Assembly (NCBI GenBank): GCA_015486285.1
Contig: WFRX01000140.1
Span: forward strand, 1,621-65,620
Reading direction: 5' to 3'
DNA from: a bacterium
GTDB taxonomy: Bacteria; Desulfobacterota; DSWW01
DNA length: 64,000 nucleotides
Both the position numbers and the translations under genes were made by a program. Positions 2,306 through 52,383 of this stretch are shown here, piece by piece (the first letter of the stretch is position 1; each line of letters starts with the position of its first letter). Below the pieces are notes generated by a model. The model ran no database searches. It was not told the DNA's origin and saw nothing but the letters and a program-made list of their open reading frames with translations.

Positions 2306-2591
2306 GACAGAACTCCTGTGGTGGATTTTCGTGGAAGATACGGGGCACACCATGCAGATGATTCACCCTAGCACCGACGTGAAGGCATGACAAGAAGCTT
2401 GTGCCCGCCTGCCGACCCAAGGCGATGCGCCAGGCAGGCCCCCGTGGGGAACAACGCCCCGCGGACGCCGAAGGAGTCTTCTCCCGGAACGGCCCTTGCT
2501 TCTGTCTATCCTATCGGATAATAATGAACGGGTTCGAAAACGGCGATGGTGCCGGTTGGCTGACTCTATCTTGGAGAAGGAGGGACATGCC

Positions 2592-3344: not shown

Positions 3345-3409
3345 CACCCTGCCGGCGGGGTCGACGGCCGTCCCCGATTCCGCCGGCAGATATATACGAT
3401 ATTTTGTGT

Positions 3410-3427
3410 TCTCCTCCAAAATAATGG
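3410..3427 (+). promoter_or_regulatory. Putative activator site (imperfect palindrome CTCCAAAATAATGGATG) about 100 bp upstream of a sigma-54-type promoter
   Basis: Shares the CTCCAAAAT half-site with the perfect palindrome at 12902-12917, at the same distance from a near-identical promoter. Confidence 0.4.
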
Positions 3428-3524
3428 ATGTATTCTGGCCAGGCATATCTGAAATCTCCTCCCGCCGATTCGAGAAAAAACAGATCTTCCAGTCCCTTAC
3501 CGTCTCCTTGCCTTTGCGCGCCCT

Positions 3525-3540
3525 CTGGTATGAATCTTGA
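3525..3540 (+). promoter_or_regulatory. Sigma-54-type promoter candidate (CTCTGGTATGAATCTTGATAA; GG-N10-TTGA)
   Basis: -24 TGG and -12 TTG correctly spaced, -12 C replaced by A. 19 of 22 positions identical to the promoter at 13011-13032. Lies 45 bp upstream of the ABM gene. Confidence 0.45.
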
Positions 3541-3582
3541 TAATGCCCTGTCCCATGGGTCGGGAATGAAAGGGGCGCTGCG

Positions 3583-3966
3583 ATGATGGTACTGGCACTC
3601 CGCATGCGCGTGCAGCAGGGAAAGCGTGACGATCTGCTCCAAGTGGTGCGGCGCATGCTGGAACCGGACAGGCTGGCAAAGGGCTGCTTGAGCTACCACT
3701 TCTACCAGGACATTGAAGACCGTAATGCCTTCGTTTTCGTGGAGGAATGGGAGTCGCGGACGGATCTCGAGGACTACATCCGCACGGAGAGCTTCAGAAG
3801 GCTCCTGGCCGTGATGGATGTTTTGCGAGAGGCCCCGAAGCTCGATATCTACAAGGTATCCGAGACGGTCGGGATGGATTTCGTCGAGGCCGTGCTCGAA
3901 GATACGGCGGCAGGCAGGGGGACATTGCCGATTGAACCGACGACACAAGGGGGGCGCCGCGCATGA
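3583..3966 (+). CDS. ABM (antibiotic-biosynthesis-monooxygenase / Dabb-fold) domain protein
   Basis: LSYHFYQDIEDRNAFVFVEEWESRTDLEDYIRTESFRRLL resembles ABM/YgiN-like proteins. Its stop overlaps the next start (ATGA at 3963). Confidence 0.5.
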   Translation: MMVLALRMRVQQGKRDDLLQVVRRMLEPDRLAKGCLSYHFYQDIEDRNAFVFVEEWESRTDLEDYIRTESFRRLLAVMDVLREAPKLDIYKVSETVGMDFVEAVLEDTAAGRGTLPIEPTTQGGRRA

Positions 3967-5627
3967 GGATCAGGCTCAGAAGATGGGTGTTATGGCTGCT
4001 TGGGATCATTTTTCCCTGTCTCTTGTTCTCCCCGTTCCAGCGGGAAGCGGGGGCATTCTTCATCGATGACAAGGGCACGCTGCAGGTTTCGGCCAAGGTA
4101 CAGACCCGGGCGAGTTTTCGGCTCCAGGACGCGGACGGCTTTACCTCTCCGGACACGAAGGCGGGCGACCTGGTCCAATGGCGCAACCTGGGCCTCATCG
4201 AGATCAATCACGATCTGAGAGAGCTTACGAAGACGCTGGACATCCTTTGGCCGCTGAAAAAACTGGAGATTGACGCCCGCTACCATCTGGTGGGCCGGTT
4301 CATGTACGATGCCGTCTACGATATCGGCAGCGGCGGCTTCGGCGACGTCAAAGACGCGGATCCCGACAACATCGACAAATTCAAGCAGTCTTACGACCTG
4401 TGGGAATGCTATGCCGATTTTGTCCGAGGTCGCTGGTTTTTCCGCCTGGGCCGACAGAATCTCGCCTGGGGTGAAACCGACATCTTCCGCCTTCTCGACG
4501 GGATCAACCCGCTGGACAACACCTTCGGCGGCCCTTTCGAGGACCTGGACGACCGTCGGATTCCCCTCTGGATGCTGAAGGGTTCCTTCGATGTGGGGGA
4601 CGTAGGACCCTTTTCTTCCGTGGCGCTGGAAGGATTCTGGGTCCCCGGGTTCTGGGACGCCCGGGTAGCCCCTTTCGCGCCCCCGGGCACGCCTTACGCC
4701 GTGCCCTTGCCCGAGCTGTTCGTTCCCGCGCTTCGTATCGATACGCCGGACAAGAAGGGGTCCAACAGCAGGTGGGGGGTGCGCCTCTCAGGGATGGCGG
4801 GGCCCAACCTGAACTGGTCCATAGCCCATTACAAGACCTTCCTGGACCAGCCGGCCCTGCGGGCGGTGGTGGACCAGGGCCAGCTCACAGAAGTGGGGGG
4901 CGAAAAGCTGCTCACAAGCCTGGACGCCCTCACCCTGGAAGGCTCCTTCCCGAGCGTGCAGGTCACGGGCGCGAGCATGAGCTATTTTGACGCGGTGACC
5001 AACACGGTGTTTCGAGGGGAAGTCGCCTGGTTCTGGGACGAACCCGTCTTCATCCCGCAGGAGAATATGTCGCTTTTCTGGGGGCCTACCGTACCCTTGC
5101 CGCCCCCGGTGCTGGATCTGGCCGCCGAGTTGCTCGGGGTGGACATCCGGGATCTGGGCCTGGACGGGCTGCCCCTGAACCCGCAAAGCGGCCGGATCCC
5201 CGAGAAGGACATCCTGCGGTTCATGATCGGGCTGGACAAGCAAATCTGGATCCGGCCCTTGAACAAGGCGAGCATGTTTTTCCTGTCCATGCAGTACTTC
5301 GGCCAGTGGATTTCCGACTACGACGGTCGGATGGCACAGGCCGCCCCGATCTACCCGGATTATGTCGTGTTTCCCAAGGTGAAAGAGTACGAGAACACCA
5401 TCACCGCCATTGTGAACACGTATTACATGCAGGGAAATCTCGTGCCCCAACTGGCCGTGGCCTATGACCCGCGGGGAGCCTGGCTTGTGATGCCCCAGGT
5501 GAATGTCATCCACGGCCCGTGGCGGTTCATGGTTCAGTACAGCGCCATCGCAGGAAACTTCACCAACTTCGGCGTCCTGCGGGACCGAGACCAGATCAGC
5601 TTCATCCTGACGTACCTGCTGAGCTAG
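3963..5627 (+). CDS. DUF1302-family outer-membrane protein
   Basis: 554 aa with a signal-peptide-like N-terminus, an aromatic-rich beta-barrel-like sequence, and a DUF1329 partner immediately downstream. Confidence 0.6.
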   Translation: MRIRLRRWVLWLLGIIFPCLLFSPFQREAGAFFIDDKGTLQVSAKVQTRASFRLQDADGFTSPDTKAGDLVQWRNLGLIEINHDLRELTKTLDILWPLKKLEIDARYHLVGRFMYDAVYDIGSGGFGDVKDADPDNIDKFKQSYDLWECYADFVRGRWFFRLGRQNLAWGETDIFRLLDGINPLDNTFGGPFEDLDDRRIPLWMLKGSFDVGDVGPFSSVALEGFWVPGFWDARVAPFAPPGTPYAVPLPELFVPALRIDTPDKKGSNSRWGVRLSGMAGPNLNWSIAHYKTFLDQPALRAVVDQGQLTEVGGEKLLTSLDALTLEGSFPSVQVTGASMSYFDAVTNTVFRGEVAWFWDEPVFIPQENMSLFWGPTVPLPPPVLDLAAELLGVDIRDLGLDGLPLNPQSGRIPEKDILRFMIGLDKQIWIRPLNKASMFFLSMQYFGQWISDYDGRMAQAAPIYPDYVVFPKVKEYENTITAIVNTYYMQGNLVPQLAVAYDPRGAWLVMPQVNVIHGPWRFMVQYSAIAGNFTNFGVLRDRDQISFILTYLLS

Positions 5628-5682
5628 CCCGGCGGCGTACAAGGGAACGGAAATGACCCTGAAAATCCATCAGGAGGGAATC

Positions 5683-6996
5683 ATGAGGTTCGGAACGTAT
5701 GGGATCCGGTTTCTTGCATGCCTTTGCGCGCTCTTGTGTCTGGCCGCCTCCGCTTCCGCCGACGTGGCGCCGGGCGACACTGTGGACAAGACGAACTGGG
5801 AGAAGGTCCAGGGGATGGTGCCGGAGCCGGTCCTCAACTACGTGAAGAAAGGGGACCTGACCATCCATGTGGTCAATCTGGAATACGACCCCGCGGACTA
5901 CATGAGCATCTACGCCAAAGAATCCTTGGAGCCGAACAGGGGCAAATATGATCTGAACGACGACGGGATCGTCGTGGACGTCCAGAGCAGGAAGCTCCCG
6001 GATTTCATCGGGGGCATTCCCTTTCCGGAGATCGACCTGAACGATCCGAAGGCAGGGGCCAAGATCGTGACCAACCACTTCTACCAGACCTTTTCCCAGG
6101 GGAATGTAAAAATCCGAGACCAATTCCGCTGGATCGGCCGCGGCGGGCTGGAGCGGGTGGTCGAATCCAATTTCTGGCAGTATCCCATGGACGGCTATCC
6201 TCCCCGGAAGGCGGCGAAAAACAAGAACAAGGTGGAGCGGTATTCGATCATTCAGATCTTGGCCCCTTACGACATTGCAGGCACGAACATTCTGCTCTGG
6301 CGGTATCGTGACGCTCGTCCGGACAGCACCTTCGGGTACATCCCGGCCATTCGGAGGGTGCGCCGTATGAGCCCGTCGAACCGCTCCGATGCGTTCATCG
6401 GGTCCGACCTCTGTGTGGATGACGCCTGGACCTTCGACGGCAAGGTGTCCTCCTTCACGTGGAAGCTGGTGGGAAAGAAAGAAGGCCTGATCCCGTACGT
6501 GTTCAAGAAGGCCCAGCCGATTGTCAAGATCAGCGACGAAGCCGTTCAAACCACGAGACAAACCCATCGTTTGCAAATGAACTACGACGTGAAAGACGCG
6601 CAGAATGCACCCTGGTTTCCCTCGGAGAAGAACCCGCTGGCCTGGGTGAAACGGCCGGTGTATGTCGTCGAATTGACGGCCAAGGACCCCTACTACAATT
6701 ACGGGAAGATGTTTCTTTGGCTGGATGCGGGGAATCCCACCGCCGCCGTGTTCAAGACGATCTATGACCGTGCCGGCAAGTACTGGAAAAACGTATGGAT
6801 GGCCTGGACCGCCCTCGCAACGGAAGACAAGAGCGTGAAGTTGCTGGTTCCCGCGTACATGCTTGCTGCGGATGATCGCACGGACCATGCCACGATGCTC
6901 CAGGGTTTGTGCGAAGACTTCATCTATACCTACTTTGACGACTCCCAGACTGAAAGGGACTATTCCCTGGCCGGATTCCAGCGTCTGTCGAAATAG
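5683..6996 (+). CDS. DUF1329-family (LolA-like) outer-membrane/periplasmic protein
   Basis: Signal peptide MRFGTYGIRFLACLCALLCLAASASA; family resemblance and the usual pairing with DUF1302. Start at the internal ATG 5683 with a CAGGAGGG SD (the ORF track starts at 5653). Confidence 0.6.
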   Translation: MRFGTYGIRFLACLCALLCLAASASADVAPGDTVDKTNWEKVQGMVPEPVLNYVKKGDLTIHVVNLEYDPADYMSIYAKESLEPNRGKYDLNDDGIVVDVQSRKLPDFIGGIPFPEIDLNDPKAGAKIVTNHFYQTFSQGNVKIRDQFRWIGRGGLERVVESNFWQYPMDGYPPRKAAKNKNKVERYSIIQILAPYDIAGTNILLWRYRDARPDSTFGYIPAIRRVRRMSPSNRSDAFIGSDLCVDDAWTFDGKVSSFTWKLVGKKEGLIPYVFKKAQPIVKISDEAVQTTRQTHRLQMNYDVKDAQNAPWFPSEKNPLAWVKRPVYVVELTAKDPYYNYGKMFLWLDAGNPTAAVFKTIYDRAGKYWKNVWMAWTALATEDKSVKLLVPAYMLAADDRTDHATMLQGLCEDFIYTYFDDSQTERDYSLAGFQRLSK

Positions 6997-7023
6997 ATGG
7001 GAACCCGCGGAGGGGGCCAAGAC

Positions 7024-7368
7024 ATGGCTACCGTACGGATCGCGCCTGGAAACTGTAATTTTGAAACGCGGGTTTCCGTCGCGAAGATCGATAAACGGAG
7101 CTACAAGGTCGAGATCGAGAGCGCGTGCGAGCAGGTGAGCAGGCTGGGCGAAGGGATCCGCGAGTTGACGCTTCGCGATGTGCTTTGCCCCCCTTCGCTC
7201 TCCCCTTTGCTGGAGAAGGCGGGTGAGTGCAGGTTGCACGCCTCTTGTCCGGTTCCGGTGGGGATCCTCAAGGCCATGGAAGTGGAGGCCGGCCTCGCTT
7301 TGCCCATGGATGTCGTTATCCGGTTCGAGCGGTCCGCCGGGAAAGACGATCCCCCAAAAAAGAGCTGA
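7024..7368 (+). CDS. Small (114 aa) Cys-containing hypothetical protein immediately upstream of RACo
   Basis: ORF 6997..7368 has protein-like composition (MATVRIAPGNCNFETRVSVAKIDKRSYKVEIESACEQ...) and a GGAGGGGG SD 8 nt before the ATG at 7024. Confidence 0.45.
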   Translation: MATVRIAPGNCNFETRVSVAKIDKRSYKVEIESACEQVSRLGEGIRELTLRDVLCPPSLSPLLEKAGECRLHASCPVPVGILKAMEVEAGLALPMDVVIRFERSAGKDDPPKKS

Positions 7369-7399
7369 TCCGGAGCTGTGGAATAGAAGGAGGCGGAGC

Positions 7400-9358
7400 G
7401 TGGCGCACGACAAAGGAGAGGCAACCGTCATCTTTCAGCCTTCCGGCCGTAGAGGCCGGGTGGAGAAAGGAAAGAACCTCAAGGAGATCTCCGTCGGCCT
7501 CGGCGTGGACATCGAAGGGCTTTGCGGCGAGCAGGGGGTCTGCGGCAAGTGCAAGGTTCGCGTGGAGCAGGGATTCTTCGAGAAGTACGGGATCCAATCC
7601 GGCCCGGAGGCCCTCTCTCCCCTCACGGACACCGAGAGAGAGGCCCTGACGGCGCGCGAGTGCGAGCAGGGTTTCCGGCTGGCCTGTGTGGCCCAGGTCC
7701 TGGGCGACGTGGTGGTGTTCGTGCCGGAGGAGAGCCGCCTGGGCAAACAGGTGGTCCGCAAGGCGGGCCGGAAGCTGGACATCGCCCTCGACCCTGCTCT
7801 TCGGAAGTACACGGTGGAACTGCCCAAGGCGACCCTGGAGGACACGCTGGGCGACTGGGAGAGGCTGCAGGCGGCACTGCGGAAGACGCACGGCCTCGAT
7901 GGCGTAACGATCGACTACACTGCCCTCACCAGCCTGCAGGGCGCCATCCGGGAGGGCGACTGGCGGGCCACGGCCACGGTCTGGAGGGACCGGGAAGTCA
8001 TCCGGGTGACTCCCGGGGGGGAGGAGAAGGCCTACGGCGTGGCTGTCGATATCGGTACGACCACGGTCGCCGCCTATCTGTGCGATCTGTCGACCGGGGA
8101 GTTGACGGTTACCTCTTCCGCGATGAACCCCCAGGTGTCGTACGGCGAAGACGTGATGTCCCGCATCAGTTACACCCTCACCAACCCGGAGGGACTCGCG
8201 CAACTCAACCGGGCGATCATCCAGGGCCTGAACAGCCTGCTCGAGGAGCTGGCGGGGGAGGGCGGCATCCGCGCGGAAGACATCGAAGACCTGGTTGTCG
8301 TGGGCAACACCTGCATGCATCACCTCCTGCTGGGAATCGATCCCCGCTATATCGGCAAGGCGCCGTTTCCGCCGGCGCTGCACCACTCCATCGACTTGAA
8401 GGCGCGCGATCTCGGCTTGAAGATATGCCCCGGCGCCTATCTGCACGTCCTTCCGATCGAAGCGGGATTCGTCGGCGCGGACAATGTGGGCGTGCTCATC
8501 GCAGAGACGCCTTACGAGGAGGAGCAGGTCCGTCTCATCATCGACATCGGCACGAACGGAGAATTGATCCTGGGCAACCGGGAAAAGCTGGTCTCCTCCT
8601 CCTGTGCCACGGGGCCCGCCTTCGAGGGCGCCGAGATCAAGTACGGGATGCGGGCGGCTCCGGGCGCCATCGAGAAGATCGTAATCGACCGGGAGACCAA
8701 GGAGGTCCGCTTCCGGGTCATCGACAACGAAGCGTGGAACGATGAGGCGGACCATATCGGCGCCAAGGGGATCTGCGGCTCGGGCATCATCGATGCGGTC
8801 CCTCAGCTCTTCCTGGCCGGGATCATCGACCGCACGGGACGGTTCTCCAAGGACCTGGACACGCCCCGGTATCGCGTTACCGAGGAGGGCCCCGCCTTCG
8901 TCATCGCCTGGGCCCGGGAGACATCCATCGGCCAGGACATCGTGATCACCCAGGACGACATCCGGGCGATCCAGCTGGCCAAGGGCGCCATGTACGCAGG
9001 TGCGGTCATCATGATGCGGGCCTTCGGGGTCGAAAGGGTGGACGAAGTCATTCTGGCCGGCGCCTTCGGCAGCTACATCGACAGGGAATCGGCGGCCCTG
9101 CTGGGCCTGTTTCCGGACTGCCCCCTGGAGAAAATCCGTTCCGTGGGCAATGCCGCCGGCGACGGCGCGCGCATGGCGCTCCTGAACGTCGGGAAAAGGG
9201 CCGAGGCGGATGAATGGGCCAGACAGGTGGAATACCTCGAGCTGACCCTGGAAGCGGATTTCGAAAAACGCTTTACCCAGGCCATGTGGATTCCCCACAT
9301 GAAGGACAAGTTCCCCTCCTTGGAGCACCTGCTGCCCGGCAAGGGGAGAGGCAAGTAG
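7400..9358 (+). CDS. RACo-type reductive activator of corrinoid proteins (N-terminal 2Fe-2S ferredoxin + ASKHA/DUF4445 ATPase domain)
   Basis: CGEQGVCGKCKV...C ferredoxin motif, then ASKHA-like VDIGTTTVAAY..., IDIGTNGEL..., GSGIIDA motifs. GTG start at 7400 preceded by an AGGAGG SD; the ORF-track N-terminal extension is ignored. Confidence 0.8.
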   Translation: MAHDKGEATVIFQPSGRRGRVEKGKNLKEISVGLGVDIEGLCGEQGVCGKCKVRVEQGFFEKYGIQSGPEALSPLTDTEREALTARECEQGFRLACVAQVLGDVVVFVPEESRLGKQVVRKAGRKLDIALDPALRKYTVELPKATLEDTLGDWERLQAALRKTHGLDGVTIDYTALTSLQGAIREGDWRATATVWRDREVIRVTPGGEEKAYGVAVDIGTTTVAAYLCDLSTGELTVTSSAMNPQVSYGEDVMSRISYTLTNPEGLAQLNRAIIQGLNSLLEELAGEGGIRAEDIEDLVVVGNTCMHHLLLGIDPRYIGKAPFPPALHHSIDLKARDLGLKICPGAYLHVLPIEAGFVGADNVGVLIAETPYEEEQVRLIIDIGTNGELILGNREKLVSSSCATGPAFEGAEIKYGMRAAPGAIEKIVIDRETKEVRFRVIDNEAWNDEADHIGAKGICGSGIIDAVPQLFLAGIIDRTGRFSKDLDTPRYRVTEEGPAFVIAWARETSIGQDIVITQDDIRAIQLAKGAMYAGAVIMMRAFGVERVDEVILAGAFGSYIDRESAALLGLFPDCPLEKIRSVGNAAGDGARMALLNVGKRAEADEWARQVEYLELTLEADFEKRFTQAMWIPHMKDKFPSLEHLLPGKGRGK

Positions 9359-9423
9359 CAGCCGGGTATGCCCAACGGCTGGAAAGTAGACCGACATGAT
9401 CAGGATGAACTGCTTTCTTCGCC

Positions 9424-9460
9424 GACTTCCCAAAAAGTCCCATTTGCGGCGTTCGGCTTC
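9424..9460 (+). repeat. Copy 1 of a short intergenic repeat family (CCCAAAAAGTCCCATTTGCGGCGTTCGGCTTCATCC)
   Basis: Related copies at 18430-18463 and 24263-24296. Confidence 0.5.
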
Positions 9461-9737
9461 ATCCGTCGTCATTCAACGTACGGGAGGTACGCTTCACCGT
9501 TACATGGATCCCCTTATCCTGCGGAATTGTCGCCTGCGTTGCACCCGGAACTTTTTGAACAGCCTCCAAGAGCCACCTTGTGAACAGGCTCTCAGGCAGG
9601 TCCGGGGGGCCGCGCCCCGTGCTGATGACAACGGCACATGGATATGCCAGACTGCAAGGAGGTCGGGTTTGTAGGTTTGTATCGGTCGTCCGGCACGAAG
9701 GCGGCCTGCGACACCGGAAGACGAAAGCGCCACGGCC

Positions 9738-11333
9738 ATGGATGAGAACGCCGGTCACCTGCTCGAGGAACGACTGCGTTTCGAGCAATTGCTTTCCAAT
9801 CTTTCCGCGAAATTCGTCAACCTCCCTGCACATCGGGTGGACGCAGAGATCTCGAGCGGACTCCAGGAAATCGCGGTTTTTCTCAACGTAGACCGGGCTA
9901 TCTTGTGGGAGCGATCTCCTGAGGATGGACGCTTCCGTCCCATTCATTGGTGGGCCATACCGGGGGTTGATACGTTTCTTCCCGGTACAACGGAAGAAAA
10001 CTTCCCGTGGATTCTCGAACGTGTTTATCGAGGTGAGGCCACGATCATTACCCGGGTGGAAGACTTCCCGGCAGAGGCGGAAAAAGAGAGGCGTTGGGTG
10101 GAGGGGACAGGTGTGAAGTCGGGCATCGTGGTGCCGCTCATGGTAGAGGGATCCGTGGTCTCCCTGCTGGCGCTGCACGTCCATCGGAGCGGGCGGCACT
10201 GGACCCCTGAAATCGTACAGCGACTGCGCATGTTCGGGGAGGTGCTTCTCAACGCCCGGGAACGCAAGCGGGGAGAAGAAAGGCTCCGGCAGGCCTTCTC
10301 CGAGATCGAGCGGCTGAAACATCAGCTCGAGGTGGAAAACCGTTACCTCCGCGAAGAAATCGACCTCACCCACGAGCACAAGGAAATCGTCGGCAAGAGC
10401 CGGGCCATCCGGAGGGTCTTGCGCTCCGTGGAAAGGGTGGCCGGTACGGAATCCACGGTTCTCATCCTCGGTGAGACCGGCGCCGGGAAGGAAATGATCG
10501 CCTTTGCGATTCACAACATGAGTCCCAGAAGAGGCAGGCCTCTCGTAAAGGTGAATTGCGGCTCTTTGCCCACTACCTTGGTGGAGAGCGAACTGTTCGG
10601 CAGAGAAAAGGGGGCGTTCACGGGCGCCGTTTCGAGACAAACGGGGCGGTTCGAGGTCGCGGACGGCTCGTCGATTTTTCTCGACGAGATCGGGGAAATG
10701 CCCCTCGAGGCACAGACCAAGCTCCTGCGGGTGATCGAGGATGGTGAATTCGAGCGTTTGGGCAGCACGAAGACCATCAAAGTGGATGTCCGCGTCATCG
10801 CCTCCACGAACCGGGACCTGCTCCAGGCGGTTCGGAAAGGCGTCTTTCGGGAGGACCTCTATTATCGTTTGAATGTCTTCCCCATTGTCGTCCCCCCTCT
10901 TCGGGAACGCAGGGAAGACATCCCCCGGCTGGTGTGGCACTTCGTGAGAAGTTACGAGAAGAAAATGGGGAAGTCTATCGAGAAGATCCCGGAGAAAGAT
11001 ATGCAGGCCCTGCAAAGGCATGACTGGCCGGGCAACGTCCGGGAGCTGAAGAACGTGGTGGAACGGGCGATGATCCTGAACCGGGGGCCCATCTTCCGGT
11101 TGGAAATGGATGAGGCCAGAGCCCACACGGGGGGCCTGGGGAGAACCCTCCGGGAGATCGAGAAGCGGCACATCATGGACGTGTTGGTGGAGACCGGTTG
11201 GCGGGTGAGGGGCAAAGGCGGCGCGGCGGAGATTCTGGGCCTCAAGCCTACGACCCTGGAAGCCAGGATGCAGAAGCTCGGCATCCGGAGAAAGCGCGAA
11301 TCCTTGTCTTCCGCTGTGGAGACGCCCCGGTGA
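9738..11333 (+). CDS. Sigma-54-dependent transcriptional activator (GAF sensor domain + AAA+ sigma-54 interaction domain + Fis-type HTH)
   Basis: GAFTGA motif ([10 protein letters not shown]), Walker A GETGAGKE, the ESELFG motif, and a C-terminal HTH ([21 protein letters not shown]). Confidence 0.9.
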
Positions 11334-11429
11334 GGCCCCGGAAGCCAGGGGACAAGGCCCGCCAAAGCACTTGAGAGGGAGTCGAGTCCGGTCCGGAAGA
11401 CAGAAGGGCACTCAATAGGGGGAAAAGAG

Positions 11430-12779
11430 ATGGGCACACAGCCGACGAAAACCTTGCAAGCGGATGTGGTGATTGCAGGGTCCGGGCCGGGCGGGGCCAC
11501 CGTGGCCCGGGAGCTTTCCCGAAAGGGCAAGCGGGTGATCGTGTGCGAGGCGGGAAAGTACAGCAAGTGGCTCGGACACACCCTTTCCACCTTTTTCATG
11601 CTGGATCGGAAGGGGTTGAGCTTTTCCGAACAGGGGCAGTGGATCGTCTCGGGCCGGACGGCCGGCGGAGGCACGGTCGTCTATGGCGGTATGGCCTGGA
11701 AGCCTCCTGCCTGGTTCAAGGAGAAGTACGGCATCGACCTCTCCGCGGAGACCGATGAGTTCTACCAGGAGGTTTCAGCCGGTCCCCTGCCGGATTCACA
11801 CATCGGTCCCGCGTCCCGGAGGATCATGGAGGCGGCCCGCAAGACGGGCCTTGACTGGAAGCCGGCCGACCGCTTGATCCGTGCGGACAAGTGTAAGCCC
11901 GACTGTGATGCGTGTATGTCCGGATGTACGCGGGGCGCCAAGTGGACGGCCCGCGAGTTCCTGGACGAGGCCGTCGGCAACGGCGCGACCCTCCTGCTGC
12001 AAACAGAGGTGGAGCGGGTTCTGACAGAGTCCGGCGAGGCGATCGGTGTGCGGGCAATGGGGCCCGAGGGGCCGGTGGAGATCCTGGCGGATACGGTGGT
12101 CGTCTCGGCGGGCGGGTTCGGAACGCCCCGCATTCTGCAGAGGTCCGGGCTCTACGAGGCCGGCCGGGGATTTGCCGTCGATTTCGGGCGCTACGTGGGC
12201 GGTCTCTGTCCCGACCACACCCCGCGGACCGAGGTTCCCGCAACGACGGGTGTCGAGCTGTCCAAGGAAGGCATCATCCTGCTTGCAGGCACGCTCAAGG
12301 GGATCATGTACGGAGGGATGCTCGCCATTACCGGGCCCCGGGCCTGGGGCCGGTTGCCCGACGCTTTCCGGGCCGGGAAGGCCCTGGGAATCCTGATGAT
12401 GGTCCGAGACCGGGTCGAGGGGAGGATCAACCCGGAGGGCACCTTTTCCAAGCCGATCGACGAGGATTGCCGGGCCAAGCTCAACCAGGGGACCCTGATC
12501 GCCCAGGAGGTGCTCGAGGAGGCCGGCGTGAGGCGCAAGCAACAGACGGCCATGACCGTTTTCGCCGCCCACCAGGTGGCTTCCGTTCGAATCGGGGAGT
12601 TGCTGGACCAGAACTGCCAGACACCCATCAAGCGATGCTACTGCATGGATGCCAGCGTGATCCCCGAGGACTGGGGCCAGCCGCCCGTGGTCACCATCGT
12701 CGCCCTGGCCAAGAGGCTCGCCAAACATCTTGCCGTGGCCGTTGAGACGGAAGTCGCCGTACAAGAACCTGCTTCCTGA
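11430..12779 (+). CDS. GMC-family FAD-dependent oxidoreductase (short form)
   Basis: N-terminal Rossmann ADVVIAGSGPGGATVAREL and a GMC-like C-terminal region. Confidence 0.65.
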   Translation: MGTQPTKTLQADVVIAGSGPGGATVARELSRKGKRVIVCEAGKYSKWLGHTLSTFFMLDRKGLSFSEQGQWIVSGRTAGGGTVVYGGMAWKPPAWFKEKYGIDLSAETDEFYQEVSAGPLPDSHIGPASRRIMEAARKTGLDWKPADRLIRADKCKPDCDACMSGCTRGAKWTAREFLDEAVGNGATLLLQTEVERVLTESGEAIGVRAMGPEGPVEILADTVVVSAGGFGTPRILQRSGLYEAGRGFAVDFGRYVGGLCPDHTPRTEVPATTGVELSKEGIILLAGTLKGIMYGGMLAITGPRAWGRLPDAFRAGKALGILMMVRDRVEGRINPEGTFSKPIDEDCRAKLNQGTLIAQEVLEEAGVRRKQQTAMTVFAAHQVASVRIGELLDQNCQTPIKRCYCMDASVIPEDWGQPPVVTIVALAKRLAKHLAVAVETEVAVQEPAS

Positions 12780-12901
12780 GGAATCCCCGGCGGGTCATTT
12801 CCGTGAGCCTGCAGAGGGGGTTTGCGTGTCATGTTGGCTTCTTTTTCAAGCCATAGCGGGGACGGGTGTGTGGCGCGGGAACTCCAAGATGTTGGGACGG
12901 G

Positions 12902-12917
12902 CTCCAAAATTTTGGAG
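12902..12917 (+). promoter_or_regulatory. Perfect 16-bp palindrome CTCCAAAATTTTGGAG; putative sigma-54 activator site (UAS)
   Basis: Read directly. Lies about 100 bp upstream of the TGGCAC promoter. Confidence 0.5.
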
Positions 12918-13010
12918 GCCGTGCTTCCTTCCTGATCATCCCTTGCCGCGGGGGGCTGAAAAATACCGTATTGTTTTCGGCAGGTTAGGTCTTCATCCGC
13001 CTTGTCGCTT

Positions 13011-13032
13011 CTCTGGCACGACTCTTGAGAAG
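13011..13032 (+). promoter_or_regulatory. Sigma-54 promoter candidate (CTCTGGCACGACTCTTGAGAAGG; TGGCACG-N4-TTGA)
   Basis: -24 TGGCACG is perfect; -12 is TTGA instead of TTGC. Sits 90-110 bp upstream of the first methyltransferase gene; a sigma-54 activator gene is adjacent. Confidence 0.55.
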
Positions 13033-13120
13033 GAAGAATGGCCGGCAGCCGACCTTGTCCCGTTTCGGATGGAGCGGGAAGGTCGGGAATGAAACGGACT
13101 TTCATGGGGAGGGCTTACGG

Positions 13121-14203
13121 ATGGTCAGTTCAAGAGGGGGCATGAGTGAACTGGAACGGCTGGAGGCGCTGTTGAACCGGGAGCGGCCGGACCGGGTACC
13201 TATCTGGCCTCTATCCGCAGGATTCAGCATGCTGAACGGAGGGTATACGATCAATGACGTCTACACCGACGTCAGGATCTGCACGGATGCGCAGATTTGG
13301 GCCAACGAACAGTACGGCTGGGCCCCTGTCGTGCTCATTCCGGGCGCCCTTTCGGCATGGCCCGCCCTGGAATTCGGCGGGGACGTCAAGTTCCCCACCG
13401 GAGACTTTTCCCAGGCCCCGACGGTTGTGCGGCATCCGGTTCAGAGCGACGAGGAGATCCTCAACCTGAAGATTCCGGATCCCCTGGAAAATGCGGGCAC
13501 CATCCCCATGCAGCTTGCCGCGGTAGCCTATGCGCTGGAGCGCCAGCCAAGGGGTCTGCTGGTGGGCCTTCTTGTAGGCGGGCCCATGGAGATCGGCAGG
13601 GCGCTCGTCAGCATCGAGATGTTGGGCCGGATGATGTACAAAAAGCCGGACATGGTGCACAAGCTTTTCCGGTTTGCCACCGACTTCTCGATCGCCGTGG
13701 CCAAGCTGTGGACCGAGAAGTTCGACCCGGCGAGGATCTGCCCCTTCGTCGGAGGGCCCACCCACTCGAACCAGGTCATCTCGCCGAAGCATTTCAAGGA
13801 ATTTTGCCTCCCCTACGTCAAGGAAACGCATGCGGCCCTGCGGGAATTGGGCTACAAGCATTTCATGTTTCATCCCTGCGGGGAGCAGAACGAGAACCTC
13901 CCCTACTGGGCCGAGGCGGAGATGGGCGACCCCGGGATCATCAGCGTGGGGCACGAGATCGACCTGAGCAAGGTGGCCGAGTACTTCCCGGATCACATCG
14001 CCTTCGGGAACCTGGAGCCGGCCATCGTACAGACCCACAAGCCTCCCGAGGTCTACGAGGCGGTCCGGGATCTGGTGGCCAGGCACAAGGACATTCCCGG
14101 CGGCTACATCTTTTCGGTGGGCTGCGAGCTGCCGCCGAAGGCCTCGCCGGGCAGTGTCTGGGCCATGACCAAGGCGGTGGAAGATGCCGGCTGGTATACG
14201 TGA
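13121..14203 (+). CDS. Uroporphyrinogen-decarboxylase (URO-D/MtaA) family methyltransferase (corrinoid-dependent MT, copy 1)
   Basis: MtaA/CmuA-like TIM-barrel sequence (RVPIWP..., HPCGEQNENLPYW). Start at ATG 13121 with a GGGGAGGG SD; ATG 13142 is the alternative. Confidence 0.75.
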   Translation: MVSSRGGMSELERLEALLNRERPDRVPIWPLSAGFSMLNGGYTINDVYTDVRICTDAQIWANEQYGWAPVVLIPGALSAWPALEFGGDVKFPTGDFSQAPTVVRHPVQSDEEILNLKIPDPLENAGTIPMQLAAVAYALERQPRGLLVGLLVGGPMEIGRALVSIEMLGRMMYKKPDMVHKLFRFATDFSIAVAKLWTEKFDPARICPFVGGPTHSNQVISPKHFKEFCLPYVKETHAALRELGYKHFMFHPCGEQNENLPYWAEAEMGDPGIISVGHEIDLSKVAEYFPDHIAFGNLEPAIVQTHKPPEVYEAVRDLVARHKDIPGGYIFSVGCELPPKASPGSVWAMTKAVEDAGWYT

Positions 14204-14274
14204 CGAGCGAGCAGTTTCTGAGGAATAGACGTAAAGAACCCAACAAGCACCCGACAAGAAGAAGGAGACCGTTC

Positions 14275-14964
14275 ATGGCGAGCGAGGAGCGAACCAGGGA
14301 GATCCTGGAGGCACTGAAGGACTCGGTCAAGGATTTCGAGGAGGAAGAGGCGGTCAAGTGGGCCAAGATCGCGCTGGAAGAAGGAGTGGATCCCTTTCAG
14401 GCGACCATGGAGGGGCTGGCGGAAGGCATGATCATCGCGGGCGATCTTTACAACCAGAAGGAGTACTTCGTGCCGGAGCTGCTCATGTGCTCCGATGCCC
14501 TGTACGCGGGGCTGGAGGTGCTCAAGCCGGCCATCGAGGCCTCGGACCGGCAATCGGAGGTAAAGGGTTCGATTGTCGTGGGGGTGGTGGAAGGGGATGT
14601 GCATGACATCGGCAAGAATCTGGTGAAGATCATGTTCGAGGTGGCGGGCTGGACGGTGCACGATCTCGGCAAGGACGTGCCCCTGGAGAAGTTCGTGGAA
14701 GAGCAGATCCGGACCGACTGCGATGTGGTGGGGCTCTCCGCGCTGATGACCACCAGCATGCTGGGTATGCCGGAGGTGATCCGGAAGCTCAGGGAGAAGA
14801 ACCCGAAGGTGCGGATCCTGATCGGGGGCGCCCCGATCAACCCGGAGGTGGCCGAGAAGTACGGGGCCGACGGCTACGCCAAGACGGCCGGGACGGCGGT
14901 GGATGAGGCGATCCGGCTGCTGAAGATGTTGCGGGACGAGGAACAGGGCAAGCAGGCGGTCTGA
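14275..14964 (+). CDS. Corrinoid (B12-binding) protein, MtaC/MtbC-like
   Basis: B12-binding DxHxxG motif (GDVHDIGKN), a helical cap domain and a Rossmann-like B12 domain; GAAGGAGA SD. Confidence 0.85.
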   Translation: MASEERTREILEALKDSVKDFEEEEAVKWAKIALEEGVDPFQATMEGLAEGMIIAGDLYNQKEYFVPELLMCSDALYAGLEVLKPAIEASDRQSEVKGSIVVGVVEGDVHDIGKNLVKIMFEVAGWTVHDLGKDVPLEKFVEEQIRTDCDVVGLSALMTTSMLGMPEVIRKLREKNPKVRILIGGAPINPEVAEKYGADGYAKTAGTAVDEAIRLLKMLRDEEQGKQAV

Positions 14965-14994
14965 CAGGGCACGAGCAGGAGGGAGGTGTTTTCG

Positions 14995-16020
14995 ATGAAT
15001 TCCAGGGAACGGGCCTTGAAGGTCTTCAAGCGCGAGCCGGTCGACCGCATACCGGTCTTCAGCGGCTACGGGAACATTACGCTGCACGGGCTTGAGCAAC
15101 ATGGCTGGAATTTCTGCGAGATCCACACGGACGCGGAGAAGATGGCGCGGGTGGCCGCCACGAGCTACGAACTCTTCGGGTTCGAGTGTGCGGTGGTGCC
15201 TTTCGACATGGGGGTGGAGGCCGAGGTCCTCGGCAGCAAGGTCAACTATTACCCGCACCGTACGGATGTGGTCTACCCGACGATCGAGCAGCCGGCCGCG
15301 GAAACGGTGGACGATCTCCGGGTGGAGATGCCCGCCGACCTGGCCCATGCGGGACGGGTTCCCGTGGTCCGGGAGGCATTGGGCAAATTGAAGGAGCGGT
15401 TGGGTGAGGATGTGGTGATCGGCGCCTGGGTGCTGGGTCCTTACACGCAGACCGGCCAACTGGTGGACCTTTCCAATCTCTCCCGGGCGGCCTACAAGAA
15501 GCAGGGGCTGATGAACGAGATCCTGGAGAAGGTCTCTACCTTCCTGATCGAAGTGATCCGGCTCTACCGGGAGGCCGGGGCGGACTACATCACGATCCGC
15601 GAGATGGGGGCGGGGCCGGACATCCTGAGCCCGGCCATCTTCCGGAAACTGGTCAAGCCCCACTTGGAGCGTATCTTCTCGGAGATCGACTCACCGAAGG
15701 TGCTGCACATGTGCGGCGACACGAACATGATCATCGAACTTCTGGGGGACTGCGGGGCGGACGCGGTGAGTGTGGAGAACAAGAACGACGTGGCCGCGTC
15801 CCGGGCGAAGCTGGGTCCGGATGCGCTGATCTTCGGCGACATCGACGCTTACAACGTGCTGGTCAACGGCACGCCGGAGCAGGTGGCGGAAGCGGTCAAG
15901 GCCGCGATCGACAAGAGCGTCAACGCCCTCTGGCCCAGTTGCGACATCTGGCCCACGGCCCCCCCGGAAAACATGCGGGCCCTTATGGAAGCCGCGAGGC
16001 AATATGGAAAACGCGGCTGA
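14995..16020 (+). CDS. URO-D/MtaA-family methyltransferase (copy 2)
   Basis: RIPVFSGYGNITLHGLEQHG..., HMCGDTNMIIELL. ATG 14995 is 9 nt after an AGGAGGGAGG SD. Confidence 0.75.
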   Translation: MNSRERALKVFKREPVDRIPVFSGYGNITLHGLEQHGWNFCEIHTDAEKMARVAATSYELFGFECAVVPFDMGVEAEVLGSKVNYYPHRTDVVYPTIEQPAAETVDDLRVEMPADLAHAGRVPVVREALGKLKERLGEDVVIGAWVLGPYTQTGQLVDLSNLSRAAYKKQGLMNEILEKVSTFLIEVIRLYREAGADYITIREMGAGPDILSPAIFRKLVKPHLERIFSEIDSPKVLHMCGDTNMIIELLGDCGADAVSVENKNDVAASRAKLGPDALIFGDIDAYNVLVNGTPEQVAEAVKAAIDKSVNALWPSCDIWPTAPPENMRALMEAARQYGKRG

Positions 16021-16093
16021 GCTTCTGTAAGGAGGGTCCGAGGATCTGGATGGGTTTGGTGTGGATCACTTGACCATTGCGAAGGAAAACCAA

Positions 16094-17035
16094 ATGCTTC
16101 GATACCCGAAAGTGCAGCAAGTGGCCGAGATCGGGGGTCTCCGGGTCGGCGGCCAGCCGGGCGAGAATCCTCCCCTCCTGGTGGGAAACATGTTCCAGAA
16201 GGGGGATGCCCTGTTGAAGAGCCGGAAACAGGGCGAGTTTGACAGGGCCCGGGCGGAAGAACGTATCCGGGAGCTGGAAAGCGTTTCCCGTGAGACGGGC
16301 ATACCCGGTATGGTGGCGCTGGTGGCGAACACGGAAGAAGAAATCAAGGGCTACATCGACTTTGTCACCGACGTGACGGACATGCCCTTTGCCGTGGACA
16401 TCTGGCAGCAGGATGTCCGGCTCGCCGCGGCGCGCTATGTGGCCGAGATGGGCATGCAGGACAGGGTCCTGTACAACAGCATCACGCCCTGGGACAAAGA
16501 CATCGCGTCCCAGGTGTCGGAACTCAAGGAACTGGGCATCCGGCATGTGGTGATCCAGGCCTTTGACACGAACGACAAGACCTCCTCGGGCAGACTCACC
16601 TCCCTGGAGGCCCTGCTGCCTTCGGCTCAGAAGGGCGGATTCGCGAGCATCCTGGTGGATACGGCCGCCATGAACCTGCCCGCCATGGGGCTGTCGCTGA
16701 AGGCCAATCATCTCATCAAGGAGCGGCTCGGCCTGCCCGTGGGGTTCGCCCCGTCCAACGGAAGCTACATGTGGCGGAAGTCCGCGGAAGGGGATGCGAA
16801 AAAGAGGTTTCCCGCCGTGGATGCGGCGGCGCATGCCGTCTGCGCGCTCCTGAGCGATTTCCTCTTCTACGGGCCCATGTCCGGGACGTCCCGGGTGTTC
16901 GCCGCCGTCGGGGCGGCAAGCGCCATGACGGCCGCGTTGGCCTACGAGGAGACGGGCGCCCTGCCGGCGGGCGCGCATCCGCTCGGCGAGATGTTTCCGG
17001 ACGTCCTCGAACAGTTCCGTCAGGACTCTGCCTGA
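16094..17035 (+). CDS. MtrH-family (pterin-binding) methyltransferase: methyl-corrinoid:tetrahydrofolate/pterin methyltransferase
   Basis: VAEIGGLRVGGQPGENPPLLVGNMF is a typical MtrH/MT-II N-terminus. ATG 16094 has a GAAGGA SD; the track's GTG at 16061 is the alternative. Confidence 0.75.
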   Translation: MLRYPKVQQVAEIGGLRVGGQPGENPPLLVGNMFQKGDALLKSRKQGEFDRARAEERIRELESVSRETGIPGMVALVANTEEEIKGYIDFVTDVTDMPFAVDIWQQDVRLAAARYVAEMGMQDRVLYNSITPWDKDIASQVSELKELGIRHVVIQAFDTNDKTSSGRLTSLEALLPSAQKGGFASILVDTAAMNLPAMGLSLKANHLIKERLGLPVGFAPSNGSYMWRKSAEGDAKKRFPAVDAAAHAVCALLSDFLFYGPMSGTSRVFAAVGAASAMTAALAYEETGALPAGAHPLGEMFPDVLEQFRQDSA

Positions 17036-17196
17036 GGAACGAAATGTTCCTGCGTATATGACGGGGCTTTGCGTGCGTGCGCGTGTTGCTCGAGGATTGC
17101 AACGCCTTCAGGATATGTGTTAAACGCATGCATGCCGCTCACATTCCGGCAGCGGTTTCAAAACATCCGGAAGAGAGACGAAGGAGGATGGATCCA

Positions 17197-18420
17197 ATGA
17201 GAGAGTTACCCCCCCGCATGCAGGATCGACTTTACCACGATATGATTCTTCCCGAGGAAACCCTGGAGATTCGGGCCAAGGCGAGGGAGTTCGCGATCCG
17301 GGAGATCGCCCCGCGGGCCTACGAGATCGCCCACACCGAGGAAAGCCGGGAGAGCTTCGCCTGGGACATCTTCCGAAAATTGGCGGAAGAGGACTTCTTC
17401 AAGATCCCCTACCCGGCCGAGGTGGGGGGGCTCGGCTTGAAATATCCGTGCTGTGCGACGGTTGTCACGGTCGAGGAACTCGCCTACATGTCGAACAGCA
17501 TTGCAGCCGTCTATGACGTGCACTGCATCCTGGCCGGCCACGCCCTGGAATACGGCTCGGAACACATCCGGGAAAACTTCCTCCGGCCCATGACCACGGC
17601 CGAAAAGATCGGCTGCTTTGCCACCACCGAACCGATGGCCAGTTCCGACCTCTCCGCCCGCTCGGTGCAGACTCGGGGCAGACGAGAGGGAGACGTGTTC
17701 ATCGTCAGCGGACAGAAGCGCTTCATCACGAATTCCTGTGTGGCCGATTTCGTCACCGCCCTGGTCAACGTCGAGGGCAAGCTCTGCATGATGGTCATCG
17801 ATCTCCACACCGACGGCTGCCGCGTGGGGGAGCCGGATCGCAAGATGGGGAACAAGGGGCAGCTCACCTCGGATATCTACTTCGACGAGGTCGCTGTTCC
17901 CGTGGAGAACCTCATCAGCGACATGGGCAAAGGCCTTCACGTGGCCCTGGGCACACTCACGTACGGCCGCGTCGGGATTGCCGCCACAGGCGTCGGCATG
18001 GCCCAGTCCGCCTTCGACGAGTCGGTGGCCTACATGAAGGAGCGGGAGGCCTTCGGCAGGAAGATCGGCCAATACCAGTACTGGCAGTTCCGTATTGCGG
18101 AGCGGGCGATTCAGATCGAGAACGCCCGGAATCTCTATCTCAAGGCCGCTCTCAGGATGGATCAGGGGGTCGAGTTCCCCGAGCCGGAGGCCGGCGGAGC
18201 CAAGTACTATGCCACCGAATGCGCCGGCGACATGGCCAGGGATGCGGTCCAGATCTTCGGCGGGTACGGATTCATGCAGGAGTTGAGCCACGACAAATCC
18301 CATTACAAGGTCCAGGAGATCTTCCGGGATTTCAAGATCGCCGAGATCTACGAAGGAACGAACGAGATTCAACGCATGATCCTCGCCCGCACGATCTTCG
18401 GCAAGGACTTGACAGGTTAG
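17197..18420 (+). CDS. Acyl-CoA dehydrogenase
   Basis: Full-length ACAD fold: FFKIPYPAEVGGLGL, TEPMASSDLS, QIFGGYGFMQELSHDKSHYKVQEIFRDFKIAEIYEGTNEIQRMI. ATG 17197 is 9 nt after an AGGAGG SD. Confidence 0.9.
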   Translation: MRELPPRMQDRLYHDMILPEETLEIRAKAREFAIREIAPRAYEIAHTEESRESFAWDIFRKLAEEDFFKIPYPAEVGGLGLKYPCCATVVTVEELAYMSNSIAAVYDVHCILAGHALEYGSEHIRENFLRPMTTAEKIGCFATTEPMASSDLSARSVQTRGRREGDVFIVSGQKRFITNSCVADFVTALVNVEGKLCMMVIDLHTDGCRVGEPDRKMGNKGQLTSDIYFDEVAVPVENLISDMGKGLHVALGTLTYGRVGIAATGVGMAQSAFDESVAYMKEREAFGRKIGQYQYWQFRIAERAIQIENARNLYLKAALRMDQGVEFPEPEAGGAKYYATECAGDMARDAVQIFGGYGFMQELSHDKSHYKVQEIFRDFKIAEIYEGTNEIQRMILARTIFGKDLTG

Positions 18421-20878: not shown

Positions 20879-21095
20879 GGCCGCTTCTCCCTGAACGAGG
20901 CTGTCGACAGATGGGTGCTTCCATAGTAGCGTCCTTGAAACAGATCGCAAACAGCCCGTTCTCGCCCGATATCCCTATCCTGTTTGCCATCCCCCCGGCG
21001 GACGGATATTCTGGTGCCGTCGCCTTTTTCGCTTTCCCTTGCGGGAAGAGTGCGGCACCGGATCCATCCGTTTGCAGCCCCACGAGGAGCCCCGT

Positions 21096-52319: not shown

Positions 52320-52383
52320 GTCTGGTGACTGCGCTATACGAAAAAGATGGAGTGCTCGACCCCTGTTTTCCCTGAGGTCCGGC

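Follow-up and report, generated by a model that had tools for sequence, protein, structure and literature searches.

A corrinoid methyltransferase system and DUF1302/DUF1329 outer-membrane proteins in a putative sigma-54 regulon of a Syntrophobacteria-like anaerobe

The range of methylated compounds open to anaerobes is set by their corrinoid methyltransferase systems, and among the uncharacterised outer-membrane pairs of Gram-negative bacteria DUF1302/DUF1329 is one of the most common. Both are encoded in one island of a 64-kb stretch of bacterial DNA (contig WFRX01000140.1 of assembly GCA_015486285.1, hereafter the window), which raises the question of whether the outer-membrane pair belongs functionally to the methyltransferase system and, if so, which methyl chemistry the system performs. 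A preliminary description of this stretch had assigned URO-D/MtaA-family, corrinoid protein and MtrH genes to positions 13121-17035, and a RACo-type reductive activase at 7400-9358 to a separate operon with an ABM-family gene and DUF1302/DUF1329. All genes that it named are present on the + strand where it placed them, with strong family matches (Table 1). Profile matches bear out the coordinates and families of the methyltransferase genes, all four RACo Pfam domains are found in the activase, and public gene calls are identical for 6 of the island proteins. The parts list was incomplete, as a sigma-54 activator (9738-11333) and the small protein DUF6951 (7024-7368) had been missed. The island is limited upstream by an Old Yellow Enzyme (OYE)-like gene and xth, both on the opposite strand, and downstream by a convergent Fe-alcohol dehydrogenase gene. 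The analysis supports the description in part, the region representing a known type of architecture in a new combination: the coupling and the type of system hold, while the O-demethylase label is doubtful and the role given to the second URO-D protein probably wrong.

Related loci, designated here by L-numbers, were fetched for comparison. In total, 84 loci were seeded with the divergent URO-D protein encoded at 13121-14203, which we name MT1, 45 loci from metagenomes were seeded with DUF1302, and 3 were seeded with the second, MtaA-like URO-D protein. The closest MT1 relatives are found in a metagenome-assembled genome (MAG) of the Syntrophobacteria (79% identity) and in Syntrophorhabdus (57%).

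Coupling of DUF1302/DUF1329 to the methyltransferase genes

The two operons share the sequences that precede them. The 15-mer TGGYAYGRNTCTTGA is present in exactly 2 copies in the 64 kb, at 3526 and 13014, and in 0 of 100 shuffles, each copy lying 40-90 bp upstream of the first gene of an operon. Its spacing, TGGCAC-N5-TTG, is correct for a sigma-54 -24/-12 promoter and is conserved at 8 orthologous sites; the same element is observed at orthologous positions in L001 (two sites), L002, L005 (two sites) and L088/L089, and specifically before the ABM gene in L001, L005 and L088. Palindromes of the form TCCRA-N4-TYGGA accompany the promoters, in pairs 20 bp apart located ~111 and ~131 bp upstream. 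Operon 2 possesses such a pair (12883 and 12903), as do the equivalent sites in L001, L002 and L088, with one scanned match and a second found by eye in L005. Upstream of the ABM gene of the window, the proximal palindrome (3415) was found alone, with no distal partner. Orthologues of the GAF-domain activator occupy the same position in L001, L002, L005 and L088; the activator encoded at 9738-11333 is a candidate regulator of both operons. Since the operons share this promoter and palindrome architecture and a GAFTGA-containing activator is encoded between them, there is good indirect evidence from sequence that they are switched on together. Other scans of the region did not reveal further control elements: no riboswitch was detected with Rfam, sigma-70 promoter and terminator scans performed no better than on shuffled sequence, and a generic repeat search of 3.2-13.2 kb returned chance-level matches only.

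Gene neighbourhoods in related genomes, a check that the preliminary description had proposed, gave a corresponding result: at least six related loci contain the same genes in rearranged order. DUF1302 orthologues of 72-78% identity adjoin genes of the methyltransferase system, DUF1329 is paired with DUF1302 in every related locus, and MT1 relatives at 74-79% identity are surrounded by the same gene set in differing orders. L001 reproduces the order of the window (ABM, fragmented DUF1302/DUF1329, RACo, activator, MT1, corrinoid protein, MtaA-like, FAD_binding_6, MtrH, GMC). DUF1302 and DUF1329 lie directly 3' of MtrH in L002 (RACo, activator, MT1, corrinoid protein, MtaA-like, FAD_binding_6, MtrH, DUF1302, DUF1329, MT1) and L005 (ABM, RACo, activator, MT1, corrinoid protein, MtaA-like, MtrH, DUF1302, DUF1329, GMC), and between MT1 genes in L006 (corrinoid protein, MT1, DUF1302, DUF1329, MT1) and L087 (DUF1302 78% identical; corrinoid protein, MT1, DUF1302, DUF1329, DUF6951, MT1). 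A more distant and independent arrangement is found in Syntrophorhabdus sp. PtaU1.Bin058 (L004), where four URO-D genes and a corrinoid protein gene are interleaved with a full BNR, MMPL, DUF1302 and DUF1329 set, and a looser association in a Pseudomonadota MAG (L016), where the pair lies ~6 kb from MT1. In the 246-kb contig of L001, DUF1302 and DUF1329 (3001-5860) are split into many short open reading frames (ORFs), which could be a frameshift-type assembly error or pseudogenisation.

The preliminary description had claimed that DUF1302/DUF1329 are coupled physically and regulatorily to the methyltransferase system, and this claim stands. Judged from sequence, the link is real and functional rather than accidental, because the promoter and upstream activator architecture is shared and the gene set is conserved in shuffled order.

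Several observations weigh against so close a coupling or against the promoter assignment. At all sites the -12 element reads GA (TTGA) where GC (TTGC) is canonical. In L088/L089 (DUF1302 72% identical; 9584-17278) an ABM, DUF1302, DUF1329, short-chain dehydrogenase/reductase (SDR), EthD and orthologous activator cassette carries the same promoter and palindrome pair, and no methyltransferase genes are located near it in L088. Among the 45 DUF1302-seeded loci, methyltransferase linkage is found only for homologues of at least 72% identity, and the 42 homologues at 42-63% identity have no methyltransferase genes. Finally, the 64-kb window has no homologue of the BNR and MMPL proteins of L004. 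The distant homologues (42-63%) instead have acyl-CoA dehydrogenase neighbours in 11 loci and a Fer4 protein like that encoded at 21039-22325 of the window in 6. The link is confined to a single DUF1302 sub-branch, apart from at least one acquisition that was independent, and DUF1302/DUF1329 pairs serve this lineage as a general accessory to catabolic clusters of the hydrophobic-acid type.

What the pair does is a separate matter. In the literature it is associated with growth on Tween and fatty esters, monoterpene use, p-cresol, phenanthrene and steroid clusters, and published views of its role diverge, favouring uptake, export or esterase activity. DUF1302/DUF1329 could serve envelope maintenance, or efflux of and tolerance to a toxic hydrophobic compound, being merely co-induced and not importers. 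[quoted passage not shown] Conversely, no RND/MMPL or BNR gene is found within the window, and DUF1302/DUF1329 lie inside the methyltransferase operon itself in several genomes. We regard this alternative as rather unlikely while giving it substantial weight; it concerns only the role of DUF1302/DUF1329 and is compatible with the remainder of our best explanation.

A conserved core and two dissimilar URO-D proteins

Components of the island differ in how strictly they are retained. A recurrent module of corrinoid protein, one to three MT1 proteins, often DUF6951, RACo, MtrH and the MtaA-like protein is observed in Dehalococcoidia, Thermodesulfobacteriota and others, represented among the 84 MT1-seeded loci by L014, L017, L038, L052, L068, L072, L076 and L085. 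At most one gene separates MtrH from the MtaA-like gene in 11/11 MtrH-bearing MT1-seeded loci and in the 3 loci seeded with the MtaA-like protein (14/14). In L132 and L133 the unit consists of GntR, corrinoid protein, a RACo joined in one polypeptide with an NAD(P)H iron-sulfur flavoprotein, MtrH and MtaA-like, with 2 nt separating the MtrH stop from the MtaA-like start and no divergent MT1 within 8 kb of the unit. The sequences thus point to a conserved core of corrinoid protein, RACo (with the IscU-like DUF6951), MtrH and an MtaA-type zinc methyltransferase. DUF6951 adjoins RACo or MT1 in 17 loci. RACo displays a CX5CX2C...C motif and scores 478 against a cut-off of 800 for the AcsV equivalog, and it is therefore a member of the family but not AcsV. 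We found no paper on the module, or on its link to DUF1302/DUF1329, in the literature searched.

The presumed electron supply to RACo varies between loci. In many (L017, L052, L068, L085, L132-L134), RACo is ~1150 residues long and fused to a Fer4_20/Pyr_redox_2 NAD(P)H flavoprotein, whereas in L001 and L002 a separate FAD_binding_6 (FNR-like) gene lies between the MtaA-like and MtrH genes, an unannotated ORF occupying this position in L005. No FAD_binding_6, electron-transfer flavoprotein (ETF) or CCG homologues of the related loci are present within the window. As the window has neither a RACo-fused flavoprotein nor a FAD_binding_6 gene, the electron donor for reactivation is not encoded locally. 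In L085 (3480-5030) a fusion of an MtaA-like URO-D domain with a CobA/CobO/BtuR (corrinoid adenosyltransferase-like) domain adjoins MtrH and RACo.

Conservation also separates the two URO-D proteins. Bits per residue relative to the window proteins, averaged over seven distant loci, are 1.54 for the corrinoid protein, 1.49 for RACo, 1.34 for the MtaA-like protein, 1.32 for MtrH and 0.91 for MT1. The MtaA-like family retains 62-84% identity across >120 sequence clusters and MT1 homologues extend down to ~44%, with a copy number of 1-3 per locus. Combined, these results suggest that the MtaA-like enzyme behaves as constant machinery and that MT1 is an exchangeable element, probably substrate-specific. 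The preliminary description had considered both proteins to be substrate-to-corrinoid methyltransferases. For the divergent MT1 this assignment agrees with the data; for the MtaA-like protein it is probably wrong, given the core-like conservation and the pairing with MtrH.

The preliminary description had also named uroporphyrinogen decarboxylase (HemE) as the identity that would undo the methyltransferase assignment. Both proteins match Pfam URO-D and HemE structures are close fold matches (TM-score ~0.75). The HemE profile TIGR01464 nevertheless gives 37.1 and 58.9 bits (37 and 59 when rounded) against a cut-off of 303, the MtaA-like protein passes NF004889, the MtaA zinc triad is present, and the genes are set among those for a corrinoid protein, MtrH and RACo. 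That both are HemE, with no methyltransferase system at all, has virtually no probability, and this identity was rejected.

The zinc site bears on the chemistry. The MtaA-like protein aligns end to end with Methanosarcina mazei MtaA (PDB 4ay7, E = 6e-50), its LHMCG and PSCD motifs falling onto the zinc ligands His246, Cys248 and Cys325. It exceeds the NCBIfam cut-off for the NF004889 subfamily (265/244) and remains below those for the MtaA_Meth (257/400) and MtbA (176/600) equivalogs. MT1 is below all NCBIfam MtaA-type cut-offs (≤96 bits), yet the invariant His251, Cys253 and Cys335 of its family profile fall on the same three 4ay7 ligands, and its AlphaFold model (pLDDT 91) has MtaA as the closest structure (TM-score 0.78/0.83). 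Over the full set of fetched loci, 113/115 MT1-family ORFs and 11/12 MtaA-like ORFs retain the triad. CdmB, the only other solved relative of MT1, is without all three residues; according to the CdmBCA paper it groups with the O-demethylases, nearest MtoB. The MT1 profile scores 66.1 bits to MtaA and 50.5 to CdmB (PDB 9rui), which is the sole proxy for the O-demethylase branch (OdmB, VdmB, MtvB, MtoB) in this comparison. Kountz & Balskus (PMC10418091) describe His-Cys-Cys as a mark of S- and Se-methyltransferases in the UroD superfamily, O-demethylases having one or both Cys replaced (carboxylate or missing ligands).

By this criterion, the O-demethylase label that the preliminary description gave to the system is unlikely for both URO-D proteins, as both keep the MtaA His-Cys-Cys. 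The retained zinc site likewise suggests that a sulfur (thioether or thiol) or selenium group, rather than a methoxy group, is the more likely methyl partner.

The opposing view is that the island encodes a classical four-component O-demethylase for methoxylated, perhaps aromatic, substrates, with both URO-D proteins acting as MT1, MtrH passing the methyl group to tetrahydrofolate (THF) and DUF1302/DUF1329 performing import. Methoxy-to-THF methyl transfer is thermodynamically easy, and Syntrophorhabdus and its relatives degrade aromatics. The combination of MT1, corrinoid protein, MtrH-type second methyltransferase and RACo matches the Mto system, DUF1302/DUF1329 are found in aromatic and terpene catabolic clusters, and the MtaA-like protein, as the only URO-D protein of the cluster in L132 and L133, could itself be an MT1. 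In addition, MT1 homologues of other phyla have TRAP and ABC transporters and SDRs close by that would also suit aromatic acids, which counts against a sulfur or selenium partner, as does the fact that the His-Cys-Cys rule comes from a preprint (PMC10418091) and is correlative. On the other side, the triad is near-invariant in both families while replaced in O-demethylases (PMC10418091) and missing in CdmB, MT1 scores nearer MtaA than CdmB, and the MtaA-like protein is conserved like a core component and unlike a substrate-specific enzyme.

Accessory and neighbouring genes

Features of the island are listed in Table 1. ABM orthologues head the same operon in L001, L005 and L088, and GMC-like orthologues lie within the cluster in L001 and L005; both genes thus stay with the system in the closest relatives. 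Searched against PDB sequences, the ABM and GMC-like proteins returned generic family matches only. The GMC oxidoreductase and acyl-CoA dehydrogenase had been described as flanking the cluster. Both genes are present, although the GMC-like gene lies between the operons and the acyl-CoA dehydrogenase gene, like the DUF1254/DUF1214 gene that follows it, is not conserved with methyltransferase genes in relatives. Given gaps of 41 and 66 bp, these two genes are probably co-transcribed with the MtrH operon here.

Table 1. Features of the island, with positions in the window.
Feature	Position	Strand	Evidence or remarks
Upstream activator-like palindrome TCCAAAATAATGGA	3415..3428	+	111 bp before operon 1 promoter; same promoter-relative position as operon 2 proximal palindrome
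Sigma-54-type -24/-12 element TGGTATGAATCTTGA	3526..3540	+	Precedes ABM gene
ABM-family small protein, first gene of operon 1	3583..3966	+	59.5 bits
DUF1302 outer-membrane beta-barrel	3963..5627	+	Pfam 110.6 bits; N-terminal signal peptide
DUF1329/LolA-like periplasmic partner of DUF1302	5653..6996	+	Pfam 140 bits; signal peptide
DUF6951 small Cys3-His protein	7024..7368	+	Weak IscU-like fold match; just upstream of RACo
RACo-type ATP-dependent reductive activase	7400..9358	+	Fer2 (2Fe-2S), linker, middle and ASKHA domains; C-terminal domain 320 bits
Sigma-54 enhancer-binding protein	9738..11333	+	GAF sensor, AAA+ (Sigma54_activat) with GAFTGA, HTH_8
Divergent GMC-like FAD oxidoreductase	11430..12779	+	Family match; cytoplasmic, Cys-rich insert
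Two palindromes, TCCAAGATGTTGGG and TCCAAAATTTTGGA, 20 bp apart	12883..12916	+	131 and 111 bp before operon 2 promoter
Sigma-54-type -24/-12 element TGGCACGACTCTTGA	13014..13028	+	Precedes MT1
Divergent URO-D methyltransferase MT1	13121..14203	+	150 bits; His251/Cys253/Cys335 triad
Corrinoid protein	14275..14964	+	B12-binding_2 and B12-binding; DVHDIG fits DxHxxG
MtaA-like Zn (His-Cys-Cys) methyltransferase	14995..16020	+	URO-D 232 bits
MtrH-family methyl-corrinoid:pterin (tetrahydrofolate) methyltransferase	16061..17035	+	202 bits
Acyl-CoA dehydrogenase	17077..18420	+	Family match; 41 bp after MtrH
DUF1254/DUF1214 protein, last co-directional gene	18487..19578	+	66-bp gap; system membership uncertain

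The commonest non-core neighbour of MT1 is a cytoplasmic bis-molybdopterin guanine dinucleotide (bis-MGD) molybdopterin oxidoreductase of ~680-726 residues with an Fe4S4 domain and no Tat signal, present in 16 loci (L003, L009, L010, L019, L022, L027, L028, L030, L033, L036, L044, L050, L057, L066, L075 and L084). It is below every NCBIfam cut-off, FdhA, PhsA and acetylene hydratase being nearest, and gives no clue to sulfur versus oxygen chemistry. The window also encodes a cytoplasmic bis-MGD molybdo/tungsto-enzyme of 746 residues (43002-45242, + strand), which was rejected as a member of this family at only 24-28% identity. It is 84% identical to a protein encoded at 5775-8012 of L088, two genes upstream of the ABM-DUF1302-DUF1329-SDR-EthD-activator cassette. 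Both copies follow a sigma-70-like promoter and the palindrome GACCGGTTGGTC, and they therefore appear to belong to a separate regulon.

At the upstream edge of the window (381-2353, - strand), the 537-residue ORF at 381-1994 is not one gene; exodeoxyribonuclease III corresponds to its C-terminal part only, and an OYE-type flavin oxidoreductase encoded in another frame (1169-2353) overlaps the upstream part. This OYE resembles the N-terminal domain of a 673-residue OYE encoded beside ETF genes near the L002 methyltransferase cluster. Elsewhere, the window carries a large (Alu-domain) bacterial signal recognition particle RNA gene and four tRNA genes (63190-63457; 52245-52459; 58304-58390; 63067-63158), a 1156-residue penicillin-amidase-family protein (38095-41565, - strand) and a PKD-repeat protein (59720-61600, + strand), the two proteins being apparently unrelated to the island.

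Proposed mechanism, related systems and significance

In our best explanation, two operons and a GAF-domain activator encoded between them make up a single sigma-54 regulon of an uncultured Syntrophobacteria-like anaerobe. A hydrophobic methylated compound would be handled at the outer membrane by DUF1302/DUF1329, and the compound or a derivative would be sensed by the GAF domain of the activator, turning both operons on. MT1 would then exchange the methyl group with the corrinoid protein in its Co(I) state, and the MtrH/MtaA-like pair would link methyl-Co(III) to tetrahydrofolate through MtrH and to a thiol through the MtaA-like enzyme. RACo would re-reduce corrinoid that has become oxidised to Co(II) back to Co(I), perhaps with DUF6951. 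Taken as a whole, from regulation to chemistry, we consider this explanation evenly balanced between right and wrong.

Energetics and substrate also count against this explanation. Methyl transfer from methyl-tetrahydromethanopterin (methyl-H4MPT) to coenzyme M (HS-CoM), giving methyl-CoM, proceeds with ~ -30 kJ/mol (Thauer's value, for the Mtr reaction). Because of this value, flow from a thioether to folate would be uphill by ~30 kJ/mol, requiring either an activated or oxygen-linked donor, or product removal, or net flow toward thiols. Nor was a substrate identified, in line with the view of the preliminary description that the substrate is not identifiable from sequence. Owing to the uphill step, the O-demethylase alternative is retained as unlikely but of appreciable weight, and a methylating direction is retained as an improbable one.

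In the methylating direction, MtrH would load the corrinoid protein from methyl-THF and the MtaA-like enzyme, possibly also MT1, would methylate thiols, sulfide or selenide, forming a disaggregated, soluble analogue of MetH or Mtr; DUF1302/DUF1329 would handle a hydrophobic thiol or export the product, the improbability just stated applying to this alternative as a whole, including its outer-membrane part. The four functions mirror the four MetH modules, and pterin-to-thiol methyl transfer is exergonic by ~30 kJ/mol. Corrinoid protein, RACo, MtrH and MtaA-like also form a complete unit without a nearby divergent MT1 in L132 and L133, and a related Mlp enzyme methylates selenide and sulfide in vitro (PMC10418091). 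However, uptake-type outer-membrane proteins, a flavoprotein and an acyl-CoA dehydrogenase give this sigma-54-inducible island a catabolic look, a thiol acceptor could not be identified, and variation in MT1 copy number suits diversity of substrates better than diversity of products.

The overall architecture is that of the corrinoid three- and four-component methyltransferases (Mto, Odm, Vdm, Mtv, Mtg, Cmu, Cdm). With the O-demethylases (Odm/Vdm of Acetobacterium dehalogenans, Mtv of Moorella, MtoABCD of Methermicoccus) the island shares a URO-D MT1, a DxHxxG corrinoid protein, a pterin methyltransferase and a RACo-type activase, the pterin methyltransferase being of the MtrH type as in MtoA. 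Unlike these systems, MT1 here carries His-Cys-Cys and scores nearer MtaA than CdmB, an extra and highly conserved MtaA-like enzyme is paired with MtrH, and the activase is encoded in a second operon with outer-membrane proteins under apparent sigma-54 control. The MtaA-like protein shares zinc ligands and the URO-D TIM-barrel with MtaA/MtbA/MtsA of methanogens and exceeds the NF004889 subfamily cut-off, but it occurs in a bacterial host with no coenzyme M pathway evident within the window, its partner is MtrH and not MtaB/MtaC, and it falls below the MtaA equivalog cut-off. The chloromethane systems CmuAB and CdmBCA are alike in combining a URO-D methyltransferase, a corrinoid carrier and a pterin methyltransferase, and CmuB is described as MtrH-like. 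CmuA, however, is a fusion with a corrinoid domain whereas the components are separate here, and CdmB lacks the zinc site and its triad, which both URO-D proteins keep. A functional analogy may be drawn with MetH and methanogen Mtr, in which MtrH would stand for binding of the pterin methyl group, the corrinoid protein for the carrier, the MtaA-like enzyme for the zinc-thiol acceptor site and RACo for reactivation; here the proteins are separate and soluble, the acceptor enzyme is of the URO-D type and not a MetH Hcy domain or MtrE, and reactivation is ATP-dependent, not SAM-dependent as in MetH.

By gene content, the type 1 mlp clusters of strict anaerobes (PMC10418091) are also comparable, containing at least two MtaA-like His-Cys-Cys proteins, a corrinoid protein and an activase (RACE/RACo), with S/Se-methyl transfer as their proposed chemistry. 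They differ in characteristically being without a tetrahydrofolate methyltransferase, whereas MtrH is present here, in being mostly from Firmicutes, and in that no outer-membrane genes are reported for them. At the outer membrane, AmeABCD of Castellaniella defragrans and PP_0765/0766 of Pseudomonas likewise combine a signal-peptide DUF1302 with a LolA-like DUF1329, the two being transcribed together and induced when hydrophobic compounds are catabolised; the island differs in its sigma-54/GAF activator and corrinoid methyltransferase link in place of LuxR/AraC regulators. It differs also from the DUF1302/DUF1329/BNR/RND sets, as BNR and RND partners are not found in the window though present in L004. 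The estrogen methyltransferase EmtABCD was rejected as a relative, EmtA being MtmB-like and not URO-D. No literature was found for 8Z9U or for sulfide methylation by Holophaga.

The conserved and apparently co-regulated link provides a concrete setting in which the role of DUF1302/DUF1329 can be tested, and the literature searched contains no description of the constant MtrH/MtaA-like pair of Dehalococcoidia, Thermodesulfobacteriota and relatives. The near-invariant thiol-type zinc site suggests that abundant sediment clusters may use methyl-sulfur and not methoxy chemistry; if so, their annotation in metagenomes would change. A broader proposal, which is speculative and which we think unlikely to prove correct in full, is that a methyl-THF:thiol exchange machine, soluble and widespread in bacteria and in effect a disaggregated MetH/Mtr analogue, is built from corrinoid protein, RACo, MtrH and the MtaA-like enzyme, and that variable His-Cys-Cys MT1 paralogues feed methyl-S/Se compounds into it, with DUF1302/DUF1329 acting here as a gate for a hydrophobic methylthio substrate. 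Were it true, these clusters would supply candidate genes for the process by which sulfate reducers and syntrophs break down dimethyl sulfide (DMS), methanethiol and methylthio compounds in anoxic sediments, and for the corrinoid-dependent methylation of sulfide to methanethiol in the same environments.

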